NCBI RefSeq assembly: GCF_018977255.1
Contig: NW_024704743.1
Location: 16,618,001 to 16,682,000, forward strand
Source of the DNA: Callorhinchus milii
Taxonomy: Eukaryota
Reading direction: 5' to 3'
Length of the DNA: 64,000 bases
Shown here: positions 3,805 through 59,537 of the stretch, piece by piece
How positions within the stretch are numbered: position 1 is the stretch's first letter
How the letters are laid out: every line of letters begins with the position of its first letter
Notes under the pieces: generated by a model
Told to the model about the DNA's origin: nothing
The model's input: the letters and a program-made list of their open reading frames with translations, nothing else
Databases searched by the model: none
Program-made: the position numbers and the translations under genes

Positions 3805-4090
3805 GCAAGCGAGACACCTGGGTTCAAATCCAGGCAGGGCGAAACCTTGGGCAAATTTCTTTACTCCCCACGCCTAATGATAATCTCTCCAAAACAAAAC
3901 AATAATAAATTGGTCATTTTCAATCCACGACTGTTTGTGGGACACTACTGTGCGCAATTGGCTGCCACGTTTCGCCCACAAATATACGGTCAATTCACTT
4001 TACACCATATTCTATGAAGCACTTTGAGACGTCGAGAAGACGTGAGAAGCGCTATATCAAATGCAAGGATTATTATTATTATTATTATTA
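3805..4090 (+). mobile_element. tRNA-derived SINE with L2-like tail (representative of many copies)
   Basis: Head GCAAGCGAGACACCTGGGTTCAAATCC..GGCAGGGCGAAACCTTGGGCAA; tail GCTATATCAAATGCAAGG(ATT)n. Other copies near 5950-6205, 8810-9025(-), 14270-14430, 39300-39430, 39988-40235, 44095-44300, 47450-47800(-), 48858-49090, 55034-55285(-), 62420-62640(-). Confidence 0.88.
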
Positions 4091-7000
4091 TAGCCCCCGC
4101 CCCAGCAAAACCCCCCCGATCCGCCCACCACAGATCCCAGCATTGACCACGGTCACCCACGCAGCATAGCCCCCCCTTAACCCAGCACAGCCCCTGATCC
4201 TCCCAGCATAGCCCCCCACCAACACAACCCTCCCACACTCAGCACAGCCACCCGACGCCCATCACAGCCCTCCCCCAATCCCCAGCACAGATCCCTATGC
4301 CCAGCACAGTCCCCCACAAACAACCAGCAGCGTCCACTCCTGCGCAGCACAGTCCCCTCCTGCCCAGCACAGCAACCCCACACCTAGCACAGCATCACCA
4401 CCGCCCAGGAAAGCCCACCCAACAGCACAGCACAACTCCTCGAACCGCCTAGAACAGTCCCCTCCTGCCGAGCACAGCGCCCCCACCTCCACCCAGCACA
4501 GTCTCCTCCTGCCCAGCACAGACCCCCCCCCTTCCAACACAGCTCCTCCGCCCTGCACAGCCCAGACCCAGCACAGAGCCCCCTCCCAGCCCTGGCCACC
4601 AAGCAGAGCTCCCCACCCAGCACAGTGTCCCCGCCCAGCACAGCCCACCCCCCAACCCAGCACAGCCCCCTCACCCAGCACAGACCCCACACCCAGCACA
4701 GCCACCCCACCCCCCCAACACCCCTCCGGCCCAGCACCCAACCAGCCAGTACAGCCCCCCAACTCCTCCAGCCAGCCCAGCCCCCCACCCAACCCTGCAC
4801 AGGCAATCTCCGCTAAATTTTAACAATCAATACAACTGCATTACGGACGTGGTGGTGATGAGAAACAAATACAGAAAGTAAAAGTTAAAAGTAAAAAGTT
4901 GCTGCGTCAATGTTTTGTTTCTGGAAATGAAACACAAAAATATTGTTTATAATAATCCCAGCATTTAATCTAGTGCCTGATCATGTAGTTACGACATCTC
5001 AAAGAGCTTCACAGAATACACTGAATTGACTGTATATTTTGTGGGCGAAAACCGCCAAAAGGTTGAAACACCCAGCCTTACGGGAATGACGCTATATAAA
5101 TGTATTGTTTTTCTGTCCTTTCCTGCTCAACTGCTTTGTCATTTCACAATGAAATGAAACTGATGATTAGGAGTCTAACAATATCAAGAAGCACCTGTGG
5201 TTTCAGTGTAAAATTTAATAACCACACCTGGGTTCCTGTAAACACTTGCAAGTTTGCAGGGCTATGGGGAGAGAGAGCGGGGGGAGTGTGACTTGGTTAG
5301 CTCTTTTCAAAGAGCTGGCACAGACACAATGGGCTGAATAGTCTCCTTCTGTGCTGTATAATTCTATGATTTTATAATAGTGTTCTGGTCATTAGTTACC
5401 CTTCGAGGAATGAAAAACATCCTGGTATCACAAATTGCCCTTTGCAACTTTATATCTATTTTCTGTGAAAGGTTTGAAGTTGCTTGTAAGTGCTTGGATT
5501 TCAATTCCCTTTGAAGGAAATTCTGTATTTAAAAACAGCTTTCAATCTTAAACTGCTTTGCCGAAATTATTGTCAAGTGTGGGATGACTGGGTCTTTCTT
5601 ATAGAGGCAAACTTAGCAGTCGTTTTGCATGCAGCGAAGTCTCACAAACAGCCATATGGTTCAGAATCAATAACCAATTTAAGATAATGAAGGATATTGA
5701 CAAAGTAGATAGGGAATTATTTGATAATGCCAAAAAACGAAGCACAATTTTAGCATGATATCTGAGGCAGTTAAGAGCGAATGGAGAAGATATTTCTACA
5801 CACAAAGCACTTAGAATGTAGAATGCATCACCACAGATCACCGTAAATTCAGAATCAAAGGGGAGACAGATAGAAACTTGGGAAGCAAGGGTTATTAATG
5901 CAATTTGAGAAAAAGGCAGTCATCAAGCCTCCTTGATAACTCTGATATCTCGCCTCAATGCCTCGCAAGCGTGAGACCTGGGTTCTACTCCCGGCAGGGC
6001 GAAATATTGGGCAAGTTTCCTTACTCCACACACCTCTGTTTATCTAGCAGTAAGTAGGAACACGGTTGTTAGTCGATTGACAGATCGCTTTCCCGAGGAT
6101 AATAATCCTTAAAAGATTCACTTTACAATATATTCTGTGAAGCACTTTGCGATGTCTAGAAGACGTGAAAAGCACTATATCAAATGCAAGGATTATTATT
6201 ATTATTTTCTTATCTTATGCGTCCCTATAAAAATAGTTGAAGTACCGATATTACTCAAGTACTTGTTTGTTTGGAAAACTTATTTCATAGTTTTGCAGTA
6301 TTCTGCTTAACAAAACTGTTAGAATAGCACTATTAGAATAGTACTGTTAGAGTGGCAGGCTGGTAGGATAGTTCAGACACACTAAAGATTTCTGCTTCTC
6401 TGATTTCTGTGTACACGTCAGACCTTCAAACAATGCAGCACTCCCCCAGCACTGTACTGGAGTGTCATCTTAGACTACAAACTCAAAGTCCCGATATGGG
6501 AATTGAACTGTGAATCTTCTGACCCACATGATGAGAGTCTACCATCTGAGCCAGACTGATACCAGTACAGTGAATTATCTGGGTGTGACAACACAAATTT
6601 GCAAATTGGAATCTTCCATGGTCACATGTAGTCAAGGAATATAATCTGCCCAACCCTAGAAGATGGTGCGATTGATATAGGGGTGGTGTCCATGGTCTGA
6701 TTGTATCACTTTTGTTTTCTGTGAATGAAGAAAGCAGCGTCGTTCAGTGTGTGCTGTGAACTAAGCTGTTGCTGTTGACTGTCTGTGAGCACTGGGTAAT
6801 AATTGTAATCAATTGTGACTGAAGTATGGGGTATGCTGGTGGGAGATCAACGCAGGTTTGAGGACTGGACCAGAAAGTACCGGAGCATATTATTAGAATT
6901 TAGGAATGCTATGGTTGAGCAAGTGAGTGGATTTTTACTGGATAAACCACCCCAGGTCACTTTTGTTTATTCCAAAGGAAGAGTCAAAGTGGTGCCAATC

Positions 7001-7761
7001 CAGTGTCATGGCATTATTGATGTCAACAGTATCTTGAAGAGATTATGTCTATGGGAAGGGTATCTGGATTTGAGAAGTGAAGGGAATCAGAAAGTGATTA
7101 GGGATGACAGGTTGGTCAGTGTTATCTCGCAGGTGGTTGGGTGTTATTTGATAACAAAAACAACAAAGTGACCATAAAGGTAGTTCTGAGAGTTTATGTG
7201 GAAGGAAAGGTTGAGGACAAATGCAACATGGAAAAATCAGGAGAGATGAAGCAGGATGGTTTCAGTTGCTCGAGGCTCCAGCGGTGCCCCACAAGCTATA
7301 TGAATACAAGTTGTTGTTGTTATTCGGTAATTTATTCTTGTTTTAAAATAACGCGAACCTGAATCTTGCACAGTTTATGCAACTCGTCCTGCCTGAAACA
7401 TTCTGGAGTTTTTATGGAACGCCAAGTACTCTGAGATGTCACCTTACAGCAAGGTGGTCCAACTGACGGCCCACGGGCCACATCCAGCCCAGGGATGATT
7501 TCATCTAGCCCGAGAACCTTTTCCACCATCGAGCCACCCACTCCCTCCCTCCGGCGAAAAATGTTTCTCATTACAGCAGCTCAATGCGCAGGGAGTGGAA
7601 ATAATGTTGTCCTTTGCTGCAGTCTGTCAGGGATTCCCTCTTGAGCTGAGAGGAAGACAAGTGTGTCATCCCAACTCCTGCCAATGTAGGACAGTGAGCC
7701 ACCGAGGCTGGGAAAACAGCTGATCCCGTTGCCAAATAGTGAGGCATCTGGCAGATTGAAG

Positions 7762-8300
7762 GTGAGAGAGAGTGGTTGAGAGAGAAAGGGTGGGGGGGAT
7801 GGGGAAGAGACAGAGAGAGTGATTGGGAGAGATAAAGGTGTGAGAGAGAAAGTGATTGAGAGAAGGGTGAGGGTGGGCATGGGGAGAGAGAGTTATTGCG
7901 AGAGAGGGGGGAGAGAGAGAACGATAGAGAGGGGGAGGTGGGAGAGAGCGATTGAAAGAGAGAATGGGGAGAGGGTGATTGAGGGAGGAGAGAGAGAGTG
8001 ATTGGGAATGGGGTTGAGAGAGTGAATGAGAGAGTACGGGAGAGAGTATAATTGAGAGAGGAGGGAAAGACTGATTAAGAGAGAGAGGGGAGAGAGAATA
8101 ATTGAGAGAGAAGGGGGAGAGAGAGTGATTGAGAGAGAAACAGGAAGAGAGAGTAATTGAGAGAAAGAGGAAGAGAGAGAGAGAGTGTGAGATAGGGGGT
8201 GAGGGGAAGAGAGAGTGTGAGATTAGCGAGTATGGGTGAGTGTGAGAGTGAATGATTGACAGAGAGAGCTCATGATGGAGAGGGAGACAGAGAGAAACAG
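7762..8300. repeat. GA-rich low-complexity array with recurring GTGATTGAGAGAG
   Basis: Read directly from sequence. Confidence 0.9.
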
Positions 8301-9936
8301 AAAGAGTGGAGAATTGAGGGGGTGCATTTTGTGGTTTACAGTCAGGGTAGACGATGGGAGTCTCCCTCGGCTGCAGCGGGATGGAGGGGGGGACCCGAGT
8401 ACAGACACCGAGCGACGTGTCGTGCAGTTTCCTCACACAAAACTGTATCTTTCCCAGTGAGAAAATCCTCCACAGCCTTCACCCCTCCCCCGTCCTCATC
8501 CTTCCTCTTCAATCTCCCGACCGAGACGTTCCTTTTGCACAACACATTTGCTTCATGTCCCCTAATCCCATCTGCTCCACCATCACCATTTTGATCCCAC
8601 TCTCTGGAGCTCCATTCCTGTTGTCCCTCCCTTCCTCCTGCACCTTCGATCATGTTTTCCTCTCCCATCCCACCTCCCCCAGCTCCCACCCCCAGCTCAG
8701 GTGCCCAGCCGGTAGTATCGAGCGCTTTGAGATGTCCTTCCAACATGAAAAAGTTGCTGTGTTAATGTTATGTTTCTGGAAGTGAAGCACAAAAATATTG
8801 TTGATAATAATAATAATAATCCTTGCATTTGATATAGCGCCTTTTCACATCTTCTAGTCTGTTTTGTGGGCCACTAGAAAATCCTCAACTAATCTCTAGA
8901 TTCCTATTTACTGCTAGGTAAAAGAGGAGTGTGGAGTAAGAAAACTTGCCCAACGTTTTTCCCTGCCAGGAATCAAACCCAGGTCTTCTTGCTTGCGAGG
9001 CGAGTGCTCCAACCACTGAGCTACATTCCGTCATGTGAGTGGTGTATAAATACAAGTTGTTGCTATGAGATATATCCCTTCATTCCTGTCCTACAGGTTT
9101 TACATCTTTATTTTAAAGACCTAATTTACAGTTCTGCTGTTTCCTTGATGATTAAATGGATCATTTGATATGGTACTGAGCCAAACAAATCATCCAATGA
9201 CACCTTCATTCCCTGGTGTATATCAAGCCAGATGATCTGAGCCAGGCTGGTATTGGTGACATGCCAATTAGCTTCAGTATTCCTGGGATAGGAAGACGAA
9301 AACTAACCAGCCTGAGAAAAATAACAAATGACCAAAAATAACCAGCCTTTTACGTCAAGAAGATCTCTCAAAGCGCTGCAAAGAAGTGGCTGGGAGCCTG
9401 ACTCGGGGAGCTGTGGAGGGGGATGGTGTCAAATGCCAGGTAGAAGAGCCAAGTTGCAATGTTGGCCCTGAAAAAGGAGAGGAAGCGGGCAAGGTGAAGG
9501 TCTCCATAGACTGTGGGCAGAGTACCTGGACTCTCACCCACCAATGGTGGAGTGAAGAGAGGAGAGGACGTGAAACAAGCCGGCGTGCACTGAGTGGTGG
9601 AAGCGGCTAGGGCAGGAGTTTAGCAGGAGGTCGCAGAGGTTGGAGGGATTGGACTGCAAGAGCAAGAATCCTGAATTTGATTCACTAGGGGAGAGGGAGC
9701 CATAGGCCATGATAGGCTCATGGAGCCTGGTGCAGGAGGGCACATATGCTGCAGAGTTCTGGATGCTCTTCAGCTTGTGTGGTGAGGAGTTGGGCAAATA
9801 CATTTAGAAATATTAACCTCAGTGGATTTACTATTATCTACTATTTGCTGTAATTCTCGCTTCTCATAAAATAGTTTTGAACAGTTGTCATTCCTTAAAG
9901 CAGATCGTATTTGAGCTGACAGCTGACTGCACCACC

Positions 9937-10027
9937 ATGAACAATGCTAAAAGAGAACCAGAAGCCGGGCAGAGCCTAAATCCATTGCAATATGCAGTGT
10001 TGGCTGCAGTGTTCGGAACGGCAGTTA
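9937..10027 (+). CDS. CCDC127-like paralog, first coding exon (MNNAKREPEAGQSLNPLQYAVLAAVFGTAV)
   Basis: Context tatttgagctgacag|ctgactgcaccaccATGAACAAT matches the CCDC127 context tatttgtgctgacag|caaactgcaactccATGAACAAC; phase-1 donor A|GTGAGT. Confidence 0.85.
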
Positions 10028-10956
10028 GTGAGTATTGAGATTTTACCTTTTGATTACTAATGTGATAATCTTGTAAAATAATAGGTGGATAGAGGTGCAG
10101 GACCTTACAGCTTGAGTTAAATGCATCCCACCTACACATGGAAATCACAGAGATAGATTGTTGGATTGAATGCGCACTCTCTCCCTGGAGGGACTCATCC
10201 TGCTTACTGGAAAGTGGAGTCCTGTAGCTCAGTGGTTAGAGCTCTCGCCTCGCAAGCGAGAGACTCGGGTTCTATTCCCGGCAGGGCGATATATGATGGA
10301 GGCAACAAGTTTAGAGAATGAGATCAGGCTCATTAATTTGGAAGCAGCAAAGGACCAAACAAATCAAAGGCCTCACTTCCCAAGCGGATTACTTTGTGGA
10401 TTACTTCAGTAAAACACTGTTGTGTCTCATCACTTTAGCACACACCTAAAAACTGTCTCTTTCCCATTTTCTATAGAGTACAACTGTGGGCCAGCAGTGT
10501 AGGGTGGAGAAATAATAATATTTAACAATCCTTGAATTTGATACATCGTTGAGACATCTCAAAGCGCTTCACAGAATACACTCTAAAGCAAATTGACTAT
10601 ATATTTTGTGGGTGAAAGGCGGCAGAAATATGATACACACACACGAACACACCAACAGAGAGTTTTATTGAGGCAGAGAAAGACAGAGAGAGAAAGTGTT
10701 AACCAACTTTTGAACAACTTTTCTCCAGGACGTAAAAGGACGTCCTCCTGACGTGAAAGGTGCTATACAAATGTAATTGCTATGTTTGTTACAAACAGTC
10801 ACTGCACTTTACAATACATTTTGTGAAGTCTCTTGAGATGTTTTGACAATGTAATAAGACACTATATCAAATGTAAGAATTATTATTATCATTATTAATA
10901 CTGCTTCCTTGTGCCACAACAAAATACTGAAAACCATCTTAATTTTGTTTTTTAAG

Positions 10957-11348
10957 GATATATCCAGAAACTGAATGCAAAGGATAAGGAACAGATTGAA
11001 AAATATAAACAACTGAAAAAAATGTATGACAGCAATGAAAAAAAGAGTCAATTAGAAAGGCAAAATCAGGCCAAAGAATTGCTAAAACATTTTGAACAAT
11101 TACTAATGGTGAGGCAAAGTATGTTTTGTAGTCCTTTCATTCACCACCAACATCGTTTAGAGATAGAGAAGGATATTCTTTCCAAAGCTACTACGGACCC
11201 GATAGCAAAAGAGATTGGAATGGAAGAAGACTTGAAAGAGATTTTTCAACGTGATAAACATTGTGCTGAAAAATGGAACTCCGACGGACGGAAAAACGGC
11301 AAATTAATGTGGAATAAGATCTTGAAATGGAAGTCTAAAAAAGATTAA
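10957..11348 (+). CDS. CCDC127-like paralog, terminal coding exon (160 aa total)
   Basis: Acceptor catcttaattttgttttttaag|GA is homologous to the CCDC127 acceptor and in frame with ORF 11022..11348. Motifs RQSMFCS, DKHCA and NGKLMW align to the CCDC127 C-terminal domain. Confidence 0.88.
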
Positions 11349-12499
11349 AAGAGCCAAGGCTTCTTTCAAAGAGCATGTTGGGAAAGAGACCAGATATAAA
11401 ATCATAGCGAGTATTAAAATTCTTGGTGTCTATTCCAATAGAGACTTAGCTGTAGACTTTTGGCTGTTGATCTTTACATTGTCCAGATGTTAGTTTGGTA
11501 TTTTATGCATATTTGTTGGTTCAGATTGGCAAGAGCAATTGGTAATAAGGGCAAGCTTGGCTGGTCTATGAACAACTATTAGTAGTGAGCTTTCACTGTA
11601 ACATCACTATACAAAATACTCAGCTTCTTAAGCTTTAACTTTACTCTTCCACTAGGCCCTAAAACAAATCAGACAAATTACAGCATAGAGGGAAGTACTC
11701 TTGCCTCCGAGTCAGATGGTTGTGAGTTCAAGGTCCATGCTGGAACTTTCAGTTCACAATCTAGTCTGATATTCCATTACAGTGCTGGGGACGCAGTGCT
11801 GGGGACGCACTGCGTTGTTGGAGGTGCCGTTCTTCGGATGAAACTAAGGTCCCATCTGCCTCTTCAGGTGATGTTCAAGATTCTATGTACTATTCGAAAA
11901 GAGAAGCGTGGTAACCCTGGTATCCTGGGCAAAAATCGCCCAGATAGAACTGATCATTCACAGTTTTGTAGCTGTTTGAGTAGTATTGCTGCGTACACAT
12001 TGACTGCCATGTTCACCCACAAAGACACAGTCACTACACATGTTCTTAAGGAGACCCTGTTATAATTGTTTTTGGCAGGGTCAAAGCCTACATTTGGATT
12101 TAGTCATCTTAGTCATGGAGGAGGGAATCACTCAGTAGACTGGATGTTTGCCTATGCTCAACTGGTTTGTTTTAAAGAGGATTTTTTAAAAAATAAATAT
12201 TATGCAGTGCTGTTTCAACACAAATATCTTAAAAATTTAATGTCTTAAAAAATGTGTGTGGGAAACCAGTGGGATATTCATAAGTACTATATATAGTTGA
12301 TACATAGATTAAGACCACAGGTAGAAATGTGTATTTGAAAAGGGCTTTGGGATTCACTTTATTAATTTAAAAATATTTTTTCTTTTAATTAAATAAACAG
12401 CAACTTTAACAATCCAATGGAACAGTGAGGTACAACGAAAATAAACAGAGGCAGACAGGAGCTGCATACCTTACAGATACATCAAACCATAGGCAACTT

Positions 12500-15400
12500 T
12501 TTTTTGGGTGGGGGATCAGCCGGGTGACTGACACATGTGGAAACCCATTCACCTACTTCAGAGTATCCAAACCAAACTAAGAACTCCATCTATCTCACCT
12601 ACACACAGAAATTCTTGTGTATTGGAAATAAATGCACACTCTCAGTGGAATATTCATAAATACTACTCTCTTACGTTACCCAGGGGGGAGCCACGACAAT
12701 TAAATGAAAATGAATTAGATGTCGACATGGTTTCCACCCTTAGTTTCGATTAATGTAAGGTATTGTAGTTGTAGATATGGTTGCAATCTGGATTGCATGT
12801 TTATTGCTGGGTTTTGATACAATGAAAGTACATTTTGTTCAATAAAGGCTGTACAATCTGACCTGGTGTCTCTTATTGTTTTGCTCCTTTGGGTGTCTGA
12901 CGCATACAGAAACCAATCACCATGCTTAAGGGTATCCAAACCAAGCTGAGAGTTCCTTGCTTCCCACCTCACATGGAATCCCAGAGATATTTATTGGAAT
13001 GGAATGTGCACTCTCTCCTGTTTACCAAATTCCGGAAGCTATTAGGGACAAGTTGGCAAGAGCCAAAGGCTTGGGGACCCCAGAGTCTGCATTGGGGTAC
13101 TGCTGGAGTCTAACCAGCTAAAACTGCACAGCTTTCCATTAAGAACATTGTCTGACAAGCATTCCTATTGCTTGTCCAGCTAGGACCTCCCCACCTATAA
13201 GCGATTTGGCTTTCAGGGTTAATAGGAGTTGAGTGGGATGACTCCCTACCCCCAATGACTGGTCTGCCTTTCCAGGTGCTGCCGATGAGCCAGGTTGGCG
13301 GTAATATCATCAGCTGTGCCCTGGTGTACTGTGTGCCCGCCTGGCTCAGGTAATGGATTAGATAATCCTGCTTACCTCCTCCGCCCCCCCCCCAGCCGAG
13401 GAGGAGATACAAGTTGATCATTTGACATCTGACAAGCGTGAGGTTGAGCCCTCACAGGGTGGATGGCAGGTACCAGAAACTCTCTACAAGCTTCCTGGTG
13501 GTGTAGGATTTTAATAATGTGGTTGACTCTGAGGTAAGATAGCAGACAGAGACAATGGATAAATCAAAGGGTTAATTTATTAAGCAACAAGATGGTTAGT
13601 AAACAGTTACAAGTTTCATGCTTACAACTGCAGAAGATTGTTCAGGGCCGGCTGATCTCGACCTTCACTGTGGACACTGACACACCAATATTCCTTTGGC
13701 TAATTATTTAGCCTACGATCCCATGCTCATGGGATCCAGTATCCCACAGTGTCTAACTGTGTCCAACCTGTTAACATTTGTTTTGTTCTTTTATACCCCA
13801 AAGTTTGGACACATGATGATGAAATAGGAATGTGTAGCCAGAGGCCATTCCACCTAATCAAAGTTTACAATTTGATTGTCCAATCATATTTCTGAATTGA
13901 TTCATCCAGTCACTTTTCCTCACTCAGGGTACGCCCATAGGTTCTCAGGGTTTAATCTTGGGAATCTGGGAGTTCTCTTGAAGCCCCTGATACCAAGTGT
14001 GCAAAGTTCAGTTTGGCAGTTAATTGTATTTCCTTGACACCTTAAAATCATAAAATCCTTTCAAGACCGTCTTCCCACCAGACTGCCAGGCACCAAGAGT
14101 CCCATTAATCAGATGAATGTCAGGTTAAAGCGAAGCCACACATTCCTGATTTTATGAACGTTGACTTTTGGCCCTTTTAGTTGATTTTGGAGTCCCTCTT
14201 ATCAATGCAAACTACAATATAAAATATAAAATACAATGTAAAAAACAATAATAAAAATTAGTCACTTCAATCCATGACCGTTTGTGGGACACTGCCGTGC
14301 GCAATTGGCTGCCGCATTTCGCCCACAATTATAGAGTCAATTCACTTTACAGTATATTCTGTGAAGCACTTTGAGATGTATAGAAGGCGTGAAAAGCGCT
14401 ATATCAAATGCAAGGATTATTATTATTAGATTATTATTTTGTTTACTTGAGATAGACTGTTAAGCACCATATTTCTTACACCCACTTTGGGGTAACAAAC
14501 AATGATTTTGACTATTTCCTTACAGTGGGCAACACAGTTCAGCATTGCCACCATCTTCCTGCCTACAGCTCAGACACACATCCCTTCCCATTGAGCAATG
14601 GTTCCTCTATCCCTTCCCATGGAGCTGCTGCATCAGCTGCTTACTCAGCACCTGCTGCTTAATCCAGGTCCTCATGTCAGGGCTCTTAATAAATAGACTG
14701 TGAGGCCGCCTCCACCTCCAGGGTTTTTAATGACAGGTCAGTGTAGACCGGAGCCCTCCCTCCCTCAGCTGCTTCCCGTGTTGCCACAAATCCATCTCAC
14801 TGCTTGTTCCTGGACTTTGCAAATGAGCCATAGGAATCCTCTCCGCTGCATCCCCAGGAACTTGGATCCATAAAGGAGGACTGTTTGCACACAGGTCTTA
14901 TATTCCGCAAGCTTGACCTGCATTGGGACCTTGCTGTCCTTGAAGACGGGCGAGTATGACCAGAGTGCCCTTCACCCTTTCTATGCATGATCCTTCAGGA
15001 CAGATGGTGTCCACCACAATGCCCAAGGAACAACAATTGGGACTCATGTTCCTTGTATGCATTCATGTTTAAATTTGTGTTTAATTAGTGTTTCTCTTTC
15101 ATAGAAAATTTATAGTATAGGATTTTTTTTTTGGGGGGGGGGCTCAGATGGGTGTCCGACACAGGTGGAAACCCATCACCATGCTCAAGAGTATCCAAAC
15201 CAGACTGAGAGTTCCATGTATGTGTACCACCACATAGAAATTCTCCTGTGTCTGGAACACACTTGTATAGTAATAGTAGTCGTGCCTTATCATGTTGTTG
15301 AGACATCCCAAAGTGCTTCACGGGATATACTGTAAATTGATTTGACTGGATATTTTGTGAGTAATATCAGAGCAATGTCCCTCAAACAGCCATGTAGGAA

Positions 15401-15890
15401 GTGACCAATTTTATTTGGGGGATTGTTAGGCAGGACACTGGGAAAAGCTCCCTTCTCTATTCGAATAGTGCCATGGGGTCTTTCATGTCCACCTGAACAG
15501 GCAGACGGAACCTCAGTTTAATGTGTCATTCAAAGGATGGCACCTCCAACAATGCAATGCACATCCAGAACTGCATTGGATTATCATCTTAGAAAATGTG
15601 ATTCCTGTTAGAAAAGTCCTAACTTGGGACTTGAACCCACAACCTTCTGACTCAGATTCGTGTGTGCTACCACTGATCTAGGCTGACACAAAATACCTAA
15701 TTCTAGACAGTATTAGGCACAGGCTGGTAAGAGCCAAGACTTGTGTTGTGTGTTGGGGTACTGCTGGAGTTCACTCAGCTAAATTTGAATAGCTTGCCAC
15801 TGAGAGCACTGTTTGGCAAAGTTCCCACTGGTTGTCCAGCTCAGGCCATCCTATCCTTTAGGGCTTTGAGTTACAAGAGTTGAGTGGGAG
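12500..15890 (+). mobile_element. Cluster of an unclassified dispersed repeat (copies ~12500-12650, 12890-13250, 15125-15260 + 15695-15890); further copies at 27643-27980 and 58150-58480
   Basis: Shared motif GGGTGTCTGACAC..GTGGAAACCCATCACCATGCT.AAGAGTATCCAAACCA.ACTGAGAGTTCC. The third copy is split by a SINE. Confidence 0.75.
13502..14216 (-). mobile_element. Possible solo LTR
   Basis: Ends TGTAG...CTACA; minus-strand TATAAAA (~13795) followed by AATAAA (13581-13576); no TSD found. Confidence 0.4.
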
Positions 15891-16637
15891 ACATGCCAGT
15901 TTCCAATTACTTAGAAGGGTGCAATCTGCTCCAATTTCCCTGTTCTTTTCCCATGTTATTTTTCCACAACTCTAACCCCTTTTTTTTCTGGTGATAACAC
16001 TCAATTTGTTCCATCTCAGTGTACACCAACCTGCTTCAGGTCCCCCGCACTTCTCATCCCATCATTGGTGGTCCGGCATTCAGCATCTCTGCCCCCACAA
16101 CCCTCCCTCCATCCCTCCTGACCCCAACTCTCAGCTCGGTCCAAAAATCCATGACTGTCCAGTGCCCTGGGACGTCTTTCCAACCTGATGGACACTATAC
16201 AAGTGTAATTGTTGTTGTTTTTGTTAACAGTGATGGAGCCTGACTCCGAGCCAGAGGAAGGGAGGAGGTGACTGAAAGCATCGTCGAAAACTTAGTTGTG
16301 ATCTAAGAGGGGAAGAAGGGGGCAAGGCGGAGGGATTGAGAGAGAGAATTCCAAAGCTTTGGGGTGTAGCTTAGTGGAGTAAGCAGGCAGTGGAAATGGG
16401 AGAAAGCAGGTCAGAAAGGTTGGGAGGTGCTTAGGCATGAAGGCATTTGTAGACAAGTGAGAGGATCTTGAAACCGATCCACTGTTACAATGAGCCAGTG
16501 AAGCCTGGCGAGGACTGGTGTGATGAGGGGTGGAGTTTACTATGTTTGAGAATATGGGCGGCGGAGTCCTGATTCAACACAGTAACAGATAACACAGTAA
16601 CAAGCTGGACCCAGCGCATCCAAACATCTTGCTTCTC

Positions 16638-16726
16638 GTAACCCAGGCGACTCTGAAAATATTTACGAGTTGTCAACTGACTGGCCAGTTTCCAACCCAC
16701 AGGCATCCTGAGTCTTGGTGACATCA
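16638..16726 (+). promoter_or_regulatory. Candidate promoter: X-box-like GTAACCCAGGCGAC and CRE variant TGACATCA
   Basis: Motifs read directly from sequence about 0.6-0.7 kb upstream of the putative exon at 17349; function is inferred. Confidence 0.35.
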
Positions 16727-17348
16727 GTGGGACTCTGGAAGTGAGCAGAAGCAGCAGCAATATAACACCCCACTGGTGTTAGCAGTATCATTTGCTAAGG
16801 ACCCTCTCCCCTCACCTACACACACTTACACCCTACCGTACTTGGTATAACAGTAACCTAATAAATAGCACAATAAACTGCACCATTACAAAATATACAT
16901 ATATTTACCCCTTGTTTGTTCGGGTGGATATTACCGATTCTAGTATGCTGTTTGAAAATAGAGGAGTTTCTCTTGGTATCCTGGCTAACATTTTTCCAGA
17001 TAAATTGATCATTCACCTCCTGGCTGTTAGTGGGAATTTGCTGAATTAAAAATTGGCTGAACGTTTACTTACAAATACAGTCGCTGAGCTGGAATTGTTT
17101 TGACAGCAATTATTATAATTATCTGTGAAGTGACTTAAGAGAGTTTAATATTATAGGTGGGATACTTGCTGTAGGTTATTTATTTGCCAAGTTTGTAATT
17201 CAATAATTAAATGACGCAACCTACACAGGAATAGGAATAGAAATCTATTTAAGAAGCTGTACTACAGCATATCTACCAATGACCACAGCTTTGACATCTA
17301 AAGTCAGTGAAATACACCACAAAGTCGACCCCTTAGCTCAGATTGAAG

Positions 17349-17488
17349 ATGCACTCAAGTTCTGTGTTGAAGAGTTTTGGTGGTGGTCTGACCTTGAACT
17401 GTGACATCAAGGAGAATAATTCAGCAAAGAAAGAGTTTTTCACTGCACACTGGGAAGATCTTATTTTGATAACTAAGCCAGACGACAG
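17349..17488 (+). CDS. Uncharacterised protein, putative first coding exon (MHSSSVLKSFGGGLTLNCDIKENNSAKKEFFTAHWEDLILITKPDD)
   Basis: aagATG start, 46 open codons, strong phase-2 donor CAG|GTGAGA matching the phase of the exon at 19918. Confidence 0.6.
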
Positions 17489-19399
17489 GTGAGAAATGCT
17501 TTCATCTCAACCTTTCCTGCACGACTTTCCGTTGCAAAGTTGCTCCCCTGCGGAATTATTGTAAAATTCATCTGTTTACCATTTGTAAAATTCTTATGTA
17601 TTTACATTAATACATGACTCATTTGTGATTCATAAACTACACCATTCCAATGCACATGTATTTTACTAGACTCATTAGGGCATTTGGATTGCAAGTTTGT
17701 GAGATAGACATGATGTGACACATAGATTGGTCTGATCGGTATGGTGGGCGTAGAGCCTACTTGAGAGGGGAACCGTTTCCATCGATCAGTATAACAGACA
17801 GTCAAAACACCACCTCATTCTGCAAACAAAAACTGCAGCTTCTTTTTGCTTTTTGATTTGCTGTTGTTTCCTCTGAGACTTGTGATTGGTGTTGATTTCC
17901 TTCTAGTAGATTTCTGTAACAGGAATCTAGTTCTTTTTCAATGTTGTAATTACTCTTAAAAATTAGAGAAAAATAATCATTCCTACTTTTGATATAGCAC
18001 CTTATCACATCACTGAAACATCTCTAAGTGCGTCACAGGAATTTTTCTTTAAAGCGCAGTGACTGTGAATTTCTAGGCAAACATAGCAGACAACTTGCAC
18101 ATAGCAATATCCCTCAAAAAGCAATGAAGTTAATGATAATAATAATAATTCTGATGATTTTTGGCTAGGACATTGGGAGAATCTCCTTTCTCTTTTTAAA
18201 TAGAACCATGGGATTTTTAATGTTCGCCAGAGGCAGACGGCCTAAGTTTAACATCTCGTTAAAGGATGGCAACTCCAACAATGCAGAATTCCCCGAGCAC
18301 ATTATTGGAGTGTCAGTCTAGACTATGACTTCAAAGTCCCAATGTGGGGATCGAACCCACAACTTTTTGACTCGGAGGTGAGAGTACTACCAAATGCGCC
18401 AGGCTAATACCTTAAATAGAAACCTTAAATAGGTGAAAAACAGCCTTAAATTAATGTAGAACTCTCTAGTGATTTAGTAAGTGCAAAAGACAGAATCAGA
18501 AAGATGCTTGAAAAAGAGTAATATTAAAGAGTAACATTGAAGAGAGTGCGATTAGATAAAATGATTCATGTAGCCAAAAATACCAGCATAGACTTGATTG
18601 GCCAAATGGCCTGCTTGCATGCTGTAACATTCTATGATCACTATGTGAATCTGATTTGCTATACGAAAGTAGCTAGATTAAGATCTAGCAGGTGTCAGAG
18701 CCCTGCGTAGTTCCATGAACATTTAGAGCGTGTTAACACGATACGCAGAGGGAAAAATGTTGCACCTCCCTCTCACTGGTGCTGTAAACTGAACAGTCGC
18801 TCAATTTTACAAAATAAAAATTTAAAAGTGAGTTTTAGTAAAAACTACTTGCATTTGATATAGCACCTTATCATGTCGAGAAATCTCAAAGAGCTTCATA
18901 GAATATACTGTAAAGTGAATTGACTGTATATATTTTGTGGGCAAAATACGTTGGATATGGCTTTGTTGGAATTAAAGATAACTTAGTTCAAATTACTAAA
19001 GCTATAATATTACAACACCTCTGCATAGTGCTTTCTTTACCGCTACAACAGGAATAGACCCAGATTTATGCATATGTTGATTGTGGAAAGGAAGAGATGT
19101 GCAGAGTCCTTATGTGGACAAATTAAATCTACAAATTACTGATTTATTTACCAAATTTCCAAGTGTTCTTGCAAATGTCAAATTATGAATGGAAATGTTA
19201 ATAAAATGGCATTTGCAGCATCTATTTTATTGGACAGTTAAAAGTGAATCTTCAAACTGATTCTCAAGAGCAGTGCAAATTGTTGAAATTAAAGGCAGTC
19301 ATTATGATAATGTAAAGATTGGAAATTAATATATACAAGCTATGAAAACTCTAAAATGTAGCTAAAACATGGTACAATCTAGGTTTGGACACTTTACAT

Positions 19400-19790
19400 T
19401 AGAATGCGTTAGAATACACAACACAGAAACAGGCCATTCGGCCCAACTGGTCTATGCCAGTGCTTATGCACCACATGAGCCTCCTCCTGCTCTTCCTCAA
19501 CTAAGCTTTCAAGCATAACCTTCTATTCCTTTCTCCCTCATGTACCTATCTAGCTTTCCCTATATCTATGCTATTTGCCTCAACAACTCCTCGTGGTAGC
19601 TGTTCCACATACCCACTACGTTCTGTGTGAAGAATTTTCTTCTAACTTCCCTATTTAATCTATTTGTGACTATTTTATATTGATGGCCTCTGGTTTTGGT
19701 CTCCCCCACAAGTGGAAACATCTTCCCTATGTCTACCCTATCAAAACCTTTCATCATTTTAAAGACCTCTATTAGGTCACCCCTTACCCT
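19400..19790 (-). mobile_element. CR1-like LINE 3' end
   Basis: KMMKGFDRVD..FPL..TRGH.YK..RRKFFTQ.VVGMWNS. Older similar pieces at ~5680-5900, 26600-26730 and 43470-43800. Confidence 0.85.
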
Positions 19791-19917
19791 CCTCAGTTTA
19801 CTTTTACAGTTTTATACTTTTACTTTAGTTTACTTTTAGTGGCATGATTTGCTTTAGTTCTAAGGTGCTGTGACACATCCTGATAGTCACTTTAATCCTT
19901 AGTGCTTGATTTAACAG

Positions 19918-20314
19918 AATCATTTTGAATGAAGACAACGTTTCGTGCAAGGAGCACTATGACCAGAAACAACAAGCTATGTTCATTCTGCAGAGATCTC
20001 CTGATCAGAAAATGAGGATGGGCCGACTAGGAGGGAAAATAATGGAATATTGTCTCCCATATAAGAATGTCCTCCCTGTGCCAGTCTTTATGCCAAGCAG
20101 AGTACAAACCACTGCCAAAGAAGACTTCAGGACCCAGTGGTCTCCACTGTTGGAAGAAAAAAACATGAGGCAACTTGGAAAAACTTCAAATCCGATATTT
20201 AAAGAGGCGTTTCTCAACAAAGGAGAATTTTTGGCAATAAAGGATACTACACTTCCAAAAAGGGTAGGTTTCATAGCCTCATCCTCTCTGTCTCCTGATG
20301 TGCAAAGAGGCTGA
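19918..20314 (+). CDS. Uncharacterised protein, putative terminal coding exon (178 aa total)
   Basis: Acceptor ttgatttaacag|A, about 130 open non-repetitive codons (ORF 19925..20314), TGA, then AATAAA at 20321-20326. Confidence 0.68.
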
Positions 20315-22777: not shown

Positions 22778-23466
22778 TTAAAACTTCACGTCAGGTCTCT
22801 TTCCCAACATGGCTTCCTCAGCTCTCCTGAACTTTTGAAGCTCAGCTTGAAGTTTCCAGTATGAGATGTAAAGCCACATTAACCTGCCATTTTTTTGTTT
22901 GTCAGTGTTCAATGGATTAGCACAATGTTTATCATGTTTAAAAATGTCCTTCAAGCCAGCTTCTATTCCAACCCTTTTAGCCATCGAGTCTGTAGCAGCT
23001 CGATAAAGCATATTCTTCTCCAGGTCAAGGCGATTGTGTCTTGGGACAAAGTGACTACAAAACAGGTTTTGTCTATCAACTAGTAATCTTTCAACATATT
23101 TTATATATGCATTGGCCTGCCTTTGCCATGCTTCTTCTCTTTCCACCAGATTCCGGTACAAGGCTCCTGCAGCACCAGACTGCTGAATAATAGCTTTCTC
23201 TTCTTCAATCCTGGCACGCTCTTGATTCAGCTGTTCATGTTTTTCAACAAGTTGTCGACTCTGTGCTGAAAGAGCTTCTCGATAGCCTTGCACTCTGCTC
23301 TGATGTTTCTCCTGCTCTAGCTCAAGATGTGCAATAGAGCGCCGATACTGAACTATTGTGTCGCGGTATTTAATTTCCAAATCTTTGTGTGCAGCATCCA
23401 TCTGCATCTTACACTCTGCTTTTACTCCATCAATCTCTTTCTGGGACTCTCTCGACCAGATCCAGC
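22778..23466 (-). CDS. CCDC127: CCDC127 terminal coding exon (coiled coil plus C-terminal domain; 269 aa total)
   Basis: Acceptor tttcaag|GC completes CGC (R), then WIWSRESQKEI...RQNLFCS...DKHCA...NGRLMWLYISYW...; lies within ORF 22778..23632. Confidence 0.95.
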
Positions 23467-24104
23467 CTTGAAAAGCAAAATGAAGATAGTTTATTTTAAC
23501 ACAAGGTACAGGAACACTAGGAATAAACAGTGATTTGTGTGCTCTGAATAGAAAGGAAAAAAAATTGTAAATTGCTACTACAGTCCTCAGATATTTCTGG
23601 ACTATCCACTGCAATTTACCATTGTTTAGCAAGATTTTTTTTGAAACATCATAAATGCGATTCTATTTCCAGCCTAACAGCAGAAAATCCTACTCTAGAT
23701 GCTTGCCAGTTAATTTTCCTTCAAAACTTTTAACTTTTGAACAATCATTTCTTTGCATCATCAAAATAACCAGCTAAGACATAACTAAGACATAAGCACG
23801 ATCCATTCCCACTGAGACATTCTCAGCACCACCTCAACAAACATCATGTAATTCTATATGACAACTACAATAGTTTGTAACCAGCTATCCACAAGAGTTT
23901 GAGTTTACTCAATTTATCGTAGGTATTACTTGGTGGTTATTTTTCTCTAAATACATGTATACATATATCCTTCATATAATCTGTGTTACTTCCTTCTAAA
24001 GGTTTGGCTAAATCTTAGATCCTATACGCAATTTGTACTATTTGGTCTGCTCTACTGGAGATTGTGAAAAACTAACCAATGCCTGTTTCAGAGCGAATCC
24101 AATA

Positions 24105-24503
24105 CAGTCAAACCCTGGCTAACAGGACTGATGGGGAAGGAGATCCTTTCCGGCTAGGCAGATTTCATGGCTAATCCTAACCCTTTGAAATAAATTCAGA
24201 TAAATCCTCCTTAACCTTTAAAATAAAATGAATTTTAAATAAATAAATTAGACAAAAAAGCAAAACATATTGTGGCCACTGATGCAATGCAGCTGTATTG
24301 ATGGCCTTGGCAAAACCAATCAGTGTTAAACTGTGGGGATCACATGCGCTGCGTGGCAAGGCATGGGTGCACACTAGGAGAGTTGGGCTGGTGGGAATTT
24401 GGAATTCACAGGATGGATTTGGGGCCGGAGGAGATTTTTTCAGATCCGGTCCAGCTAAGTCCAAATTCCAGATATTTTAAGTCTGGTTAGCCGGGGTTGA
24501 GTG
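24105..24503. mobile_element. Tigger/pogo-like MITE in CCDC127 intron
   Basis: TA|CAGTCAAACCCTGGCTAACAGGAC ... GTCTGGTTAGCCGGGGTTGAGTG|TA; imperfect ~23-bp TIRs with TA flanks. Confidence 0.72.
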
Positions 24504-24606
24504 TATTCTGTTTCTAACTTCCCCGAGCTGGATGGTCCTGAACCTCTATCCATCTGTTGACTGGCAAAATTAACAAAAAAAACAGGAATGAGTTTCCAAT
24601 ACTTAC

Positions 24607-24727
24607 GAAAGGCAGCTAGTCCCAACATGGGCACGAACAGGGCGTAATTCCATTTGCTTCCATCACCTCCACCCTCTCTAGGGTTAGGCATGATGTTCCA
24701 CTGCATAGGCTCATTAAGGTTGTTCAT
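24607..24727 (-). CDS. CCDC127: CCDC127 first coding exon (MNNLNEPMQWNIMPNPREGGGDGSKWNYALFVPMLGLAAF)
   Basis: MNNLN..WNI and WNYAL.VPMLGLAAFRWIW are characteristic of the CCDC127 N-terminus. Acceptor gives exon start at 24741; phase-1 donor C|GTAAGT at 24606. Head-to-head with SDHA as in other vertebrates. Confidence 0.95.
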
Positions 24728-25564
24728 GGAGTTGCAGTTTGCTGTCAGCACAAATAAGACAAGTGTTAATTGTGCCAAATGTCCATCAGTCTTAGACAGT
24801 AAAACAATATTGTCTTATAATTTAAGATAATACTCCTTGCATTTGATGTAGCGCCATATCAAGTCTCAAAGGGCTTCACAGGATTTACTGTGTATTTTGT
24901 AGGTGAACATGGCAATCAATTTGAAGGACGGCACATCGCACAATGGGTGCTCTTCAGCACCGCATTGGAGTGCCAGAAGTCCAGTACTGCTCTATAATTT
25001 ATTATTTACTTATTTTAATTAAAGAACTGTTAGAAAAATAGATTACTGCAGCATGAAAATTCACAACTGAACCTACAGTATTGCATGAGATCAAGCTTCA
25101 TATCAAGTAGGATTCGATAAGCCCAAAACTATTCAAAGCTTGTTACTAGATCATACACACGCATCATTAGGCATCTCAGGAGTCAGCAAAAACTAATAGC
25201 ACAGATGACAACCTTTGAGTCTGGTGTATGTGCTAATTCCCTCATTGGAGTTCTGGTACAAGTTCCCCCTCTGCTGTAATTCCCTGCTCTCCCCCATATC
25301 CTTTGATTGTCAGTTTGGCTCATTGATAATATTATTGTCTCTGGATCAGATGATTGTGGGTTCAAGTCCCATATCAGAACATGAGCCCATAAGCTAATGC
25401 TCAGATGCAAAGTCTTGCCCGCTAGTTTCCGATGGACACTGAAGATCCCTTATACTGTTCAAACAAAAGAGTTGCTCTCAGTGCTCTGGCCAACAATGCT
25501 CCAGATAAATTAGCTGTTCACCTTATTGCTGTTTTAAGGAACCTTATTGGCGCAAATGGCTACC

Positions 25565-26600: not shown

Positions 26601-29453
26601 TGTACATCGTCAAAAATTGTTTTTAAACTCCACCTCCTTCTTCCGGTGACAATCTTTAATTTATGTCCTCTGACAACTGACTTGCGAAATAGCGGAAATA
26701 TTCTTTCACTATCTGTAAAAATCCTCACTGCTGAAAGCTAGCAAATTAACCTGGGTTATAAGCTCCATACTTCTGTTTGACTTGTTAGATGACTAACCCA
26801 ATGATGTAATCTTTATTAAACAGTCCTAACTAAATGTCTGCCCTATGGCTCTGTATCAAGGACATTCTGATCTTTATACAAGGTAATTCATACTTGCAAA
26901 TGTTAAGTGTCTAAACCTGTGCGTGTAAACTAAGTGAATGAGAACTTTGTTACAGCACAGAAAGTATGTTCATGTTCTCAACATTCACTTCTTTACAATA
27001 CAGAACAGCTTTAGAGTTGATAAATAATATTCAATATACATTAGTAAAAGAAAAATACAATGTTCCTTAACTAAATTATTAATAGACATCGCTTTTTTCA
27101 TCCCACATCATTTAAATCTCTCCTCCCCTTCAAGAGGAATTTAATCTTGAACATTTTTGAAGGTTCATTTTGCCACTTACTGAAATATCCAGCTCAATAA
27201 AGGCAACAGAATATGTGTGATCATCGAAGAGTCCAATTTGCAAATTTGTTTCTGAAATGAAGATACAACAGTTATATTTTTACAGTGCCTTTCATGTAAA
27301 CAAATGTCCCAAAGTACTTCACAAAATGAGAATTAGAACAAACAGAATGTTATTTAGACAAATACAGCAACCAATCTGCGCTCACAATGTCCCAAATTGC
27401 TGATTAACCTGAAATTAGTATTTACATTACAGAATAGTTCATTAGAAAGATGCTGTACAAAATGCAAGAATTATTATTAGAAAGTGAGTAATAAATATGT
27501 GGTACAGTCTACTCATGTATTAACAAATTAAAGAGAAACAAAAGGCCTCTAGATAGTAAGATCCAGGATAAGTTTAAGAGTTCCAGCTTTAAGGTCCTGA
27601 CAAAGAATAAGATAGATGGTGCATTAAGCTAGTTTCAACACATTTTGTTTGGGTCAGCCGGGTATCTGACACACGTGGAAATCCACCAGCATACTTAAAG
27701 AGTATCCAAACCAAACCGAGAGTCCCATGCAGCCCACCTACATACTGAAATTCCTGTGTTTGGAATGTAACGTGCACTCTCTCCCCAGAGGAACACATCC
27801 TGTTCATCTAATTCTGGAGAGTATGAGGCACAGTTTGGCAAGGACCCAAGGCTTGGGAACCCCCAGAATGAGCTTTGGGGTACTGCTGGAATTTCACCAG
27901 CTTAGAACCTCATAACTTGCCACTGAAAACACTGTCTGGCTAGCTTTCTGTTGCTTGTCTAGCTGGGACCACCCTTCCCAATTGGTCAATGCAATAAAGA
28001 TATAAGGAGGAAGAGCTTATAGTGAAGTACAGTGTATTGAGAGGAGCAAGAAGTGGAAATTGAGAGAAAAAAATTATTGCAGCAATACCCAAAAGTGATT
28101 TTTTTTGGCCAACCAGGAGACGGTGACACAAAGACGAGAATTGTTGAAGATAGATTAAGGCTAAAGAGGAGGGATTTTTTTCGAATTCATGATAAATATT
28201 TTACTACTTCCTGTTCAGGAGTGTGAGAGAGGTACCAAAATAACTTCATGAGATATGGGAGCAGTATCCATGTTTTGGCCCAATTTGGGCTTGGTAGACA
28301 GTTAAGAGCTTTGAGAGGACAATATATAGCACAAAATATAAAATGAAAGTACAGAAATAGAATGTGCAGTACATTATTAATATAATTATCAATATTATCT
28401 TTCTTGTGACAGTAACTGACCAATAAGAGTGGGAGGAAATGTTTCCCCTAAATCATTAATCTGCTGTCCTATGTAAGTAAGTCTGGAATCTTTCCTTACT
28501 TTATTTCGCTGCTGATAAACTTGTCAACAGCAGGATTTTAAAACATTTGAACACTGAAACAAAAATCAAACTCTGGTCTTATACTGTTGAGTTTTCTGAT
28601 CATAATCCAAATGATTCTAGAGGTAAGAATAGTCAAAATCAGAAACTTGGATACTCCAAAACAACAGACAGCTCTCAAACTCCAAGATTCACGAAAGAAT
28701 TTGTGACTAACGAATCATGAAAGTAACCAGATGCGTCAGAGGCTGACTTGCTGAAACTATGCTCCGACACCGATCTTCCAGTTCCCACTTCCAGAGTTTT
28801 TTTTCCCCACAGCCAGAAGTGGCCAACAGAGGCTTCTACTGTTCGGCACGAGATTTTCATAAATCAGCACTCAGGAATATGCCTCTACCACATCTGGGAA
28901 TGTGCAGGATTCATTAGATAAAGTCCTTTTGCTACGATCATAAATGAGCCACCCAGAGTAAAGCAGTTTTGGACTCTGAAACTTATACACAGCTGGATCC
29001 AAGGTGACATGAGGTAACACTGATGTAATGGAACACTAATGTGCTATTTTAGATCCAGTTGATGTCCTGGAAGCTGGATTTCAAAGCTCTAAAATTTTAC
29101 CCTAACATGATTACATTGTTGAGCTTCTGAGCTGCCCCACTAATAACCATGTGAATGTTTAACTGGATGTGCTAAACATTTACATGGCTAGTCAACTGCA
29201 GCAGCCGTGAAGCTTAGAAATATATTCTGTTGCAGATTTCTGATTCACTGGCTATGTTGCTGTCGAGCACATCTTGATGCAAACAAGCTGTGGAAAAAAA
29301 GATACGGGAGCAGAAATAAACACTGATCCTGTTAAGCATTTCCACAAAATTTCTCCAGTGGCTGACTGACTAAATGGCTCACTCGCAGGGCAAGATTACA
29401 AGAGAAGCAAGGATGAAGAAGGCCCTTCTGCCCTTAAGTTATAAAGTCTAGAA

Positions 29454-34725: not shown

Positions 34726-59537
<24,812 letters not shown>

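Follow-up and report, generated by a model that had tools for sequence, protein, structure and literature searches.

Introduction

The CCDC127 locus of the elephant shark Callorhinchus milii raises the question of what becomes of a tether between the two mitochondrial membranes when its rod is shortened and the core of its sequence is retained. The analysis covered a stretch of 64,000 nucleotides, called the window here (assembly GCF_018977255.1, contig NW_024704743.1, positions 16,618,001 to 16,682,000), in which a short copy of CCDC127 lies on the + strand at 9923..12860 and the parent gene on the - strand. The core of the copy appears to have been kept by selection, and its product may be a constrained, short and weakly pairing tether between the mitochondrial membranes, a reading which is preferred here and held as plausible, somewhat short of probable.

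The available parts of three recent reports describe the family. Human CCDC127 is anchored in the outer membrane with the N terminus out and the C terminus in; the anchor targets the protein and a disulfide fixes its topology and stability (10.64898/2025.12.12.693940). The rod assembles into dimers and tetramers, and the tip of the dimeric head mediates binding to liposomes (10.64898/2025.12.11.693622). The mouse protein, SPRIZ, was described as a tether of about 18 nm from outer to inner membrane whose rod length scales the intermembrane space, and MARTINI, an engineered SPRIZ with 75 added rod residues, reached about 28 nm and widened that space further; the mouse and Xenopus orthologs cross-pair, and the mouse knockout is viable (PMC13666014). 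The rod length was argued to set the width of the intermembrane space and to have stayed fixed among vertebrates over some 500 million years (PMC13666014, 2026). The earlier description of the window from its letters only, called the sequence-only reading below, had named CCDC127 a mitochondrial membrane protein, in accordance with 10.64898/2025.12.12.693940 and PMC13666014.

Gene structure and identity of the short copy

The open reading frame of the copy joins 9937-10027 to 10957-11348, giving 483 nucleotides (nt) in one frame and a protein of 160 amino acids (aa). The first coding exon (9923..10027) follows an acceptor AG at 9921-9922, carries the ATG at 9937 and ends at a GT donor at 10028. 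The intron (10028..10956) has GT and AG ends and lies in phase 1, and the junction codon is Arg, matching the parent. The last exon (10957..12860) holds the remaining coding sequence and about 1.5 kilobases (kb) of 3' untranslated region (UTR), with an AATAAA poly(A) signal at 12841..12846; its limits were taken from the starts of RNA-like contigs and the end of contig cover in run X1. The parent (22778..24727) has coding exons at 24727-24607 and 23466-22778 and encodes 269 aa, identical to protein P0190. The two genes stand tail to tail, 11.4 kb apart. The splicing, the 160-aa frame and the inverted orientation about 11 kb from the parent had all been proposed in the sequence-only reading and were borne out.

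A six-frame search of the animal's own genome returned only these two copy-like places for the second exon (6/6 candidates scored). The 160-aa protein is an exact match to UniRef100_V9L5J5 / XP_007896305.1, named CCDC127-like (Callorhinchus milii); entries of the V9L type presumably stem from transcript submissions. The same protein has a precomputed match to PF28343, and members of the CCDC127 family make up its list of sequence matches; the local copy of Pfam gave no CCDC127 match for the parent either. The short copy is thus a genuine gene that belongs to the CCDC127 sequence family; its gene model is already in the databases, and what is new here is its reading, not its existence.

Two further database models were considered, P0002 and P0123 (UniRef A0A4W3IZE8 and A0A4W3J275). 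P0002 was taken as a patched model of the short-copy locus. P0123 was rejected as an ortholog with the same short tail, being a C. milii model which carries the parent head. In these two models the tails are exchanged, that of the copy being parent-like and that of the parent copy-like; both are probably artefacts of cross-aligning the paralog proteins to each other's loci.

Transcription

Expression was checked on the contigs of 4 of 13 listed runs (X1, X2, X3 and X8; 3 studies) over 8400-27400, where the RNA status of X1-X3 was judged from breaks at splice sites, no run being on record as RNA. In all three RNA-like runs, which come from two studies, contigs start exactly at 10957. Beyond this point they carry 124, 163 and 115 more letters (X1, X2 and X3), each longer than the 105-nt upstream exon. 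The contig of the DNA-like run X8 (10868-11840) passes through the acceptor, and the parent acceptor showed the same contig break in X1 and X3. The cover of X1 ends at 12860, 14 nt past AATAAA. The evidence that the copy is transcribed, spliced and polyadenylated is therefore indirect but consistent.

The contig depth over the copy was 140 in X1 and 3-5 in X3, compared to 54 and 56-105 over the parent; tissue-variable expression is only a lead here, as the copy itself served to find the runs and genes cannot be ranked by contig depth. No coding variant of the copy was present among the rows listed for the 4 runs. A probable non-coding upstream exon of the parent was located at 27181..27250 (- strand), flanked by AG and GT, with an X3 depth of 104.5 at 27225 that equals the contig figure for the parent exon in that run.

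Losses in rod, head and tail

The length of the copy is accounted for by three losses (269 - 10 - 79 - 20 = 160 aa). Ten residues are missing upstream of the junction; from the junction Arg to the first Cys the copy has 57 residues where the parent has 136, a loss of 79, and about 60% of the rod is gone. The coil loss consists of two deletions, for residues 32-53 align best with parent 102-123 (37/66 nt, against 31 for the next best placement and a mean of 21), and the residual rod spans residues 32-65 (10959..11060). The tetramer patch (human 69-74) went with these deletions, as did the latter half of the zipper at 113-134; whichever way the residual coil is placed, the patch residues D69, L70, K73 and Y74 are among those deleted. 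Human residue numbers were assigned through a primate protein whose numbering agreed with the papers. After W155 a net shift of 1 nt leads to an early stop (11346-11348) and removes the last 20 aa; within the frameshifted former coding tail (11331..11407) the last codons of the parent persist in another frame at 11375-11407. The contigs of 4/4 runs (3 studies) cross this site without a gap, and the shift is accordingly not an assembly error. The in-frame losses of about 10 and 79 aa stated in the sequence-only reading were thus right in size; the account was incomplete in treating the coil loss as one and in missing the tail.

The hydrophobic stretch near the N terminus (residues 19-30, 9991..10026), likely an outer-membrane anchor from its hydropathy and alignment, consists of a 12-mer followed by a basic Arg/Lys flank. 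Its 17-residue hydropathy is 1.35 against 1.41 in the parent, which supports the earlier claim of such a stretch. The helical head domain (11061..11330) is identical to the parent at 44/90 positions. Its cysteines C88 (11127-11129) and C133 (11262-11264) are the equivalents of human C174 and C219, and their spacing of 45 residues is that of the CCDC127 pair. The equivalents of F177, W223, L233 and W241 are also kept. At the tip (human L176, F177, L178; V222, W223) the copy has P, F, I and K, W, the hydrophobic ones being F91, I92 and W137, and the parent H, F, V and P, L, each with 3/5 hydrophobic.

The surface through which heads dimerize was far less preserved. Out of L137, Y141, L233, L236, Y237, Y240, L243, V244, L247, F250 and I257, L233 alone survives. 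The pairing helix carries N at 236, K at 237, K at 240, S at 243 and K at 244; positions 247, 250 and 257 are absent, and 137 and 141 lie within or beside the second deletion. The C-terminal domain had been described as kept with both Cys motifs. This holds for the two cysteines and fails for the domain as a whole, in which the last helix is cut and polar and the pairing surface is gone.

The predicted structure of the copy showed one continuous helix (16-88) and a compact helical head, with a predicted local distance difference test of 90.7 and a predicted template modelling score of 0.67. A homodimer prediction scored 0.00 with the alignment unused and the fold uncertain, and is evidence neither way. 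Sequence search of the PDB and Foldseek returned nothing informative for the copy, and the best hits of VIA-align (Z 7.5, generic helical bundles) and of the protein atlas (0.75) were likewise uninformative.

Selection on the conserved core

The pattern of retention was compared with 120 orthologs. The copy keeps 20/22 of the columns conserved in at least 95% of them and 24/68 of the others (Fisher p 4e-6), the disulfide pair being among the positions kept, and up to W149 all 19 of the 19 conserved columns are intact. The ratio of nonsynonymous to synonymous rates (dN/dS) was 0.11-0.17 at the conserved columns and 0.9-1.4 at the non-conserved ones. Neutral simulations reached 19/20 retained in 0/4000 runs at a distance d of 0.27 and of 0.35 and in 1.25% at d 0.15. 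The substitutions were milder than neutral ones (BLOSUM mean 0.09 vs -0.57, p 0.005), and the chance that ATG, frame and splice sites would survive under neutrality was at most 2% for per-branch d of 0.13-0.27, at assumed rates and with indels ignored. Since neutral simulations seldom yield either the column retention or an intact frame with its splice sites, the core would have been selected through most of the copy's history, and the remainder seems to have changed at or above the neutral rate. Such pairwise data speak of past selection and not of whether it continues today. The 'functional mini-CCDC127' with a much shorter spacer of the sequence-only reading is thus supported in its selected core and its shorter spacer, and not in a head kept whole.

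Origin of the duplicate

Four non-coding patches of the copy were aligned to the parent: the 5' end of the intron (63/86, score 56, shuffled maximum 27), its 3' end (112/152, 40.5 vs 39), the upstream acceptor and ATG context (41/58, 42 vs 40) and the true 3' UTR (35/45, 50 vs 42). Two of them barely exceed the shuffles singly; all four stand at the expected positions, with 71-78% identity. Further upstream, a unique homolog of the non-coding exon of the parent (27250-27181) was found at 6593..6626 on the + strand (31/34 identical, E 4e-8). It is the sole significant match besides self in 164 kb, with an alignment score of 60 against a shuffled maximum of 40, and with it the duplicated block reaches 3.3 kb or more upstream of the ATG; an acceptor AG is not retained at the matching place. 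On the strength of these alignments together with the match at 6593-6626, the copy is to be regarded as an inverted genomic duplication of at least 4.9 kb and not as a retrocopy. Genomic duplication had been argued before from the acceptor, the ATG context and the 3' UTR; the conclusion stands, and part of that '3' UTR' homology turned out to be former coding sequence. An apparent promoter homology upstream of the copy was rejected as simple-repeat sequence. No promoter of the copy was found, and no CpG island was seen at 4001-10000.

The neutral distance between copy and parent was about 0.33 in the non-coding patches, a figure that alignability biases downwards, and 0.38-0.54 at synonymous sites. 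In the trees the parent pairs with P0003, an ortholog which is probably holocephalan, to the exclusion of the copy (support 99/96 and 94/87), and the copy is shark-like at several positions that carry one derived residue in both parent and P0003. The duplication therefore probably predates the split of parent and P0003, and the copy is probably an old inverted duplicate of CCDC127 which arose on the chimaera stem. It forms a long branch: by the approximately unbiased (AU) test, trees with copy and parent as sisters were not rejected (p-AU 0.06 and 0.13), nor was a grouping with the short shark forms (p-AU 0.087).

Short CCDC127-like forms in other vertebrates

Of 212 proteins collected, 142 showed an anchor together with the head motifs. 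The other 70 were set aside: 48 had no anchor, 19 had no motif, and 3 were patched or unrelated. The 142 comprised 109 long and 33 short forms. The spacer was 130-139 residues in 102/109 long forms and 54 on the same measure in the copy. The short set includes invertebrates and probable mis-models. Short forms, known as unchecked gene models, were named from Anguilla (187 aa), Cirrhinus (168), Pampus (160), Paramisgurnus (177), Astyanax (171), Paramormyrops (186/206), Poecilia (205/209), Lates (177), Alosa (177), Ambystoma (186), Lissotriton (186), Lethenteron (185), Pristiophorus (210) and Mustelus (247).

For a quick tree 10 rows were dropped and the amniotes thinned, leaving 24 short and 76 long forms. 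The short state needs 7 changes on this tree, at least 4 of which are forced by its starred branches, and the short forms would thus represent at least four separate origins or reversals and not one clade. Short shark forms nest among sharks, and one short form of Alosa falls with its long neighbour. At most 2 of 5 pairing positions are hydrophobic in 19/33 short forms compared to 1/109 long ones; a test of independent pairs for the coupling of short rod and lost pairing surface, with 4 pairs only, was not significant.

In the search of relatives and the tree suggested earlier, other short CCDC127-like proteins were many, the place of the copy was loose and no ortholog of it turned up. The survey of SPRIZ, in its available text, covered 711 homologs from 292 assemblies and reported no distinct paralogous clades; 0 of its 13 cartilaginous fish assemblies are from a chimaera or other holocephalan, and two distinct proteins each are listed for Pristiophorus and Ambystoma (PMC13666014). 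Among the matches listed, no paper on this copy or on short CCDC127 paralogs was present, and supplements of the SPRIZ papers may mention short copies.

If the models are right, recurrent short copies in fish and amphibians point to an undescribed branch of the CCDC127 family. That non-amniotes repeatedly made short copies as a second class of molecular ruler, for outer-inner contacts of about 6-10 nm, is a doubtful extension. If true, cells would tune the width of the intermembrane space by choice of paralog, the fixed length of vertebrate SPRIZ would hold for the parent gene only, and the elephant-shark copy would be among the shortest examples of a short ruler.

Two groups of these proteins were observed separately. 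P0157, P0165, P0198-P0204, P0159, P0206, P0155, P0186 and P0177 form a very divergent short group with several members per Poecilia species; the seven members in the tree are a clade (99/99), and the group looks like an expanded, fast-evolving percomorph subfamily. In P0194 and P0196 (newt and axolotl, 186 aa) the rod is cleanly shortened and the anchor largely intact. They are possibly a conserved short salamander paralog, which might serve as a better test protein than the chimaera copy.

Proposed function and alternative explanations

By analogy with the human and mouse protein, the N-terminal helix would anchor the copy in the outer mitochondrial membrane, the MIA40 relay would form the C88-C133 disulfide and retain the head within the intermembrane space, and contact with the inner membrane would be made by the tip (F91, I92, W137). 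With a rod 79 residues shorter, the span would be about 6-7 nm instead of about 18 nm, because 79 x 0.148 nm takes off 11.7 nm; the loss of the tetramer patch, half of the zipper and the self-pairing surface of the head would leave a short, weakly pairing contact. The copy would thus be the natural mirror image of MARTINI. We infer every step from the sequence of the copy to membrane geometry.

Several observations weigh against such a tether. The dN/dS over the whole head (90 ungapped codons; 40 transitions and 41 transversions observed) was 0.65 (dN 0.35, dS 0.54; bootstrap 0.36-1.17) and rose to 0.87 and 1.01 at transition weights of 2 and 3; a value near 1 had been named beforehand as refuting, and it is the conserved columns that rescue the case for function. 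The anchor is weak, with a 13-residue hydropathy of 1.71, tied lowest among the 33 short forms, and the Trp-rich motif which follows the anchor in orthologs is lost. P90 and K136 make 2/5 of the tip non-hydrophobic, and the final helix of the head is polar and cut by the frameshift. The membrane binding described in the available part of 10.64898/2025.12.11.693622 concerns the dimeric head, whose self-pairing residues are mostly gone from the copy. The RNA check suggested earlier at 10027/10957 gave breaks at the acceptor in 3/3 runs, while the joint itself was not among the 15 joints listed (2,440 more existed) and the identity of the extra letters is presumptive. Sequence searches found no ortholog of the copy in another chimaera or any other species. 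Finally, 18 nt of the former coding tail are identical to the parent, and this good preservation suggests that the frameshift is young and that the constraint may be historical.

This last point leads to the possibility that the copy is a transcribed duplicate in decay, which was under constraint until the frameshift in the tail and the loss of the pairing surfaces left it disabled or redundant. The overall dN/dS (0.65-1.0), the direction of the head differences (28/46 being derived in the copy, 11 in the parent and 7 undecided), a frameshift which is real and recent-looking, the missing ortholog and the viable knockout of the parent in mouse, by which the family tolerates loss (PMC13666014, in its available part), all favour it. 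It is nevertheless considered unlikely, for the 19 conserved columns up to W149 are intact, the transcript has a poly(A) end with no coding variant among the rows listed, and the frameshift lies 3 codons past the final near-invariant residue, in a stretch where an end or drift is seen in other short forms too. It is also rather unlikely that the product is functional but no longer a spacer, namely a disulfide-locked head scaffold whose surface evolves fast for a new partner, as in host-pathogen conflict or a tissue-specific mitochondrial role. The dN/dS of 0.9-1.4 at non-conserved columns although the parent branch is slow, the 8/15 bases that differ over the five codons turning the pairing helix polar, and the repeated fast-evolving local copies in fish (long branches, neighbouring locus tags in Alosa and Poecilia) would fit. 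Against this, dS comes from 20 differences that are unassignable to a branch, interferon-type motifs occur at chance (3 found, 3.3 expected), no paper among the matches listed ties the CCDC127 family to immunity, and anchor and tip are both retained, as a tether would need.

A regulatory role, in which full-length CCDC127 would be blunted or shortened by pairing with the short copy, is improbable: with both anchors in one membrane the two rods would be offset by 79 residues, and neither the tetramer patch nor the head pairing surface remains. The kept part of the zipper region (parent 102-123), the cross-pairing of mouse and Xenopus orthologs described in the available text of PMC13666014, and the contigs of both genes in the same three RNA-like runs speak for it. 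An assembly artefact, of the whole copy or of the tail frameshift, was suggested by the run of As at which the shift sits and by the two patched database models (P0002, P0123). It has next to no probability, as the copy is only about 70% identical to the parent and not near-identical, and the gap-free match of 4 independent runs across the tail refutes it.

The constrained short tether accordingly remains the preferred reading, with the hesitation already expressed. A natural core-conserved copy with 79 residues fewer offers the missing short-rod test, since the SPRIZ work, in the part available, tested only a longer rod (PMC13666014). The copy also raises the question whether head pairing is needed for binding to the inner membrane.

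Neighbouring genes and other features of the window

Between copy and parent lies an intact two-exon telethonin/TCAP-like gene (17349-17488 and 19918-20314, + strand; 178 aa; PF09470, E 1e-16), whose second exon is covered by low-depth contigs in X1 and X3. A stronger telethonin match was found on contig C23, which argues that the gene of the window is a second, divergent TCAP. From about 34700 onward on the + strand, for example in the region of 50643-51002 and 53511-53789, the window holds exons which we take to be SDHA-like and which would stand head-to-head with CCDC127, as SDHA presumably does in human. A 322-aa open frame at 41205-42170 (- strand) with the Spin-doc zinc finger PF18658 continues in broken frames and probably represents the degraded remains of a DNA transposon. 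A single-frame gene with DUF5614 and DUF1308 (L012:5048-6370, - strand), which we take to be C7orf25/UPF0415, was observed some 4-5 kb ahead of the window. An acidic, low-structure open frame of 632 aa (L009:4072-5967, + strand) had no Pfam match and is probably a large exon.

Comparison with known systems

The copy shares with vertebrate CCDC127/SPRIZ (PF28343) the gene structure, a likely N-terminal anchor, the helical rod, the head of C174/C219 type and part of the hydrophobic tip. It differs in having 57 and not about 136 residues from anchor to first Cys, in lacking the tetramer patch, in a final helix that is cut and polar with one listed self-pairing residue left, and in its much faster evolution. 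The fixed coiled coil of about 14 nm of vertebrate SPRIZ is not found in the copy, which is 79 residues shorter. Because rod length, tetramer patch and head-dimer surface all fail, the copy by its sequence falls outside the fixed-length class of SPRIZ tethers.

The other short CCDC127-like models resemble the copy in anchor, short rod and Cys-pair head, and many are polar at the pairing helix; they are scattered over the tree, known as gene models alone, and at most possible orthologs of the copy. The non-vertebrate forms, such as SPRIZ of Limulus (PMC13666014) and the 200-aa sea-urchin proteins, likewise have a shorter rod and a similar head fold. In the available text, non-vertebrate SPRIZ is ancestrally short (about 45 aa less) and said to be without hydrophobic loops (PMC13666014). 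Unlike these, the copy was secondarily shortened by 79 aa from the long vertebrate form and keeps the equivalents of F177 and W223. In MARTINI, as far as its published description is available, the rod length is altered with anchor and head retained, as in the copy (PMC13666014); MARTINI, however, is artificial and longer with its pairing surfaces preserved, whereas the copy is natural and shorter with its pairing surfaces lost.

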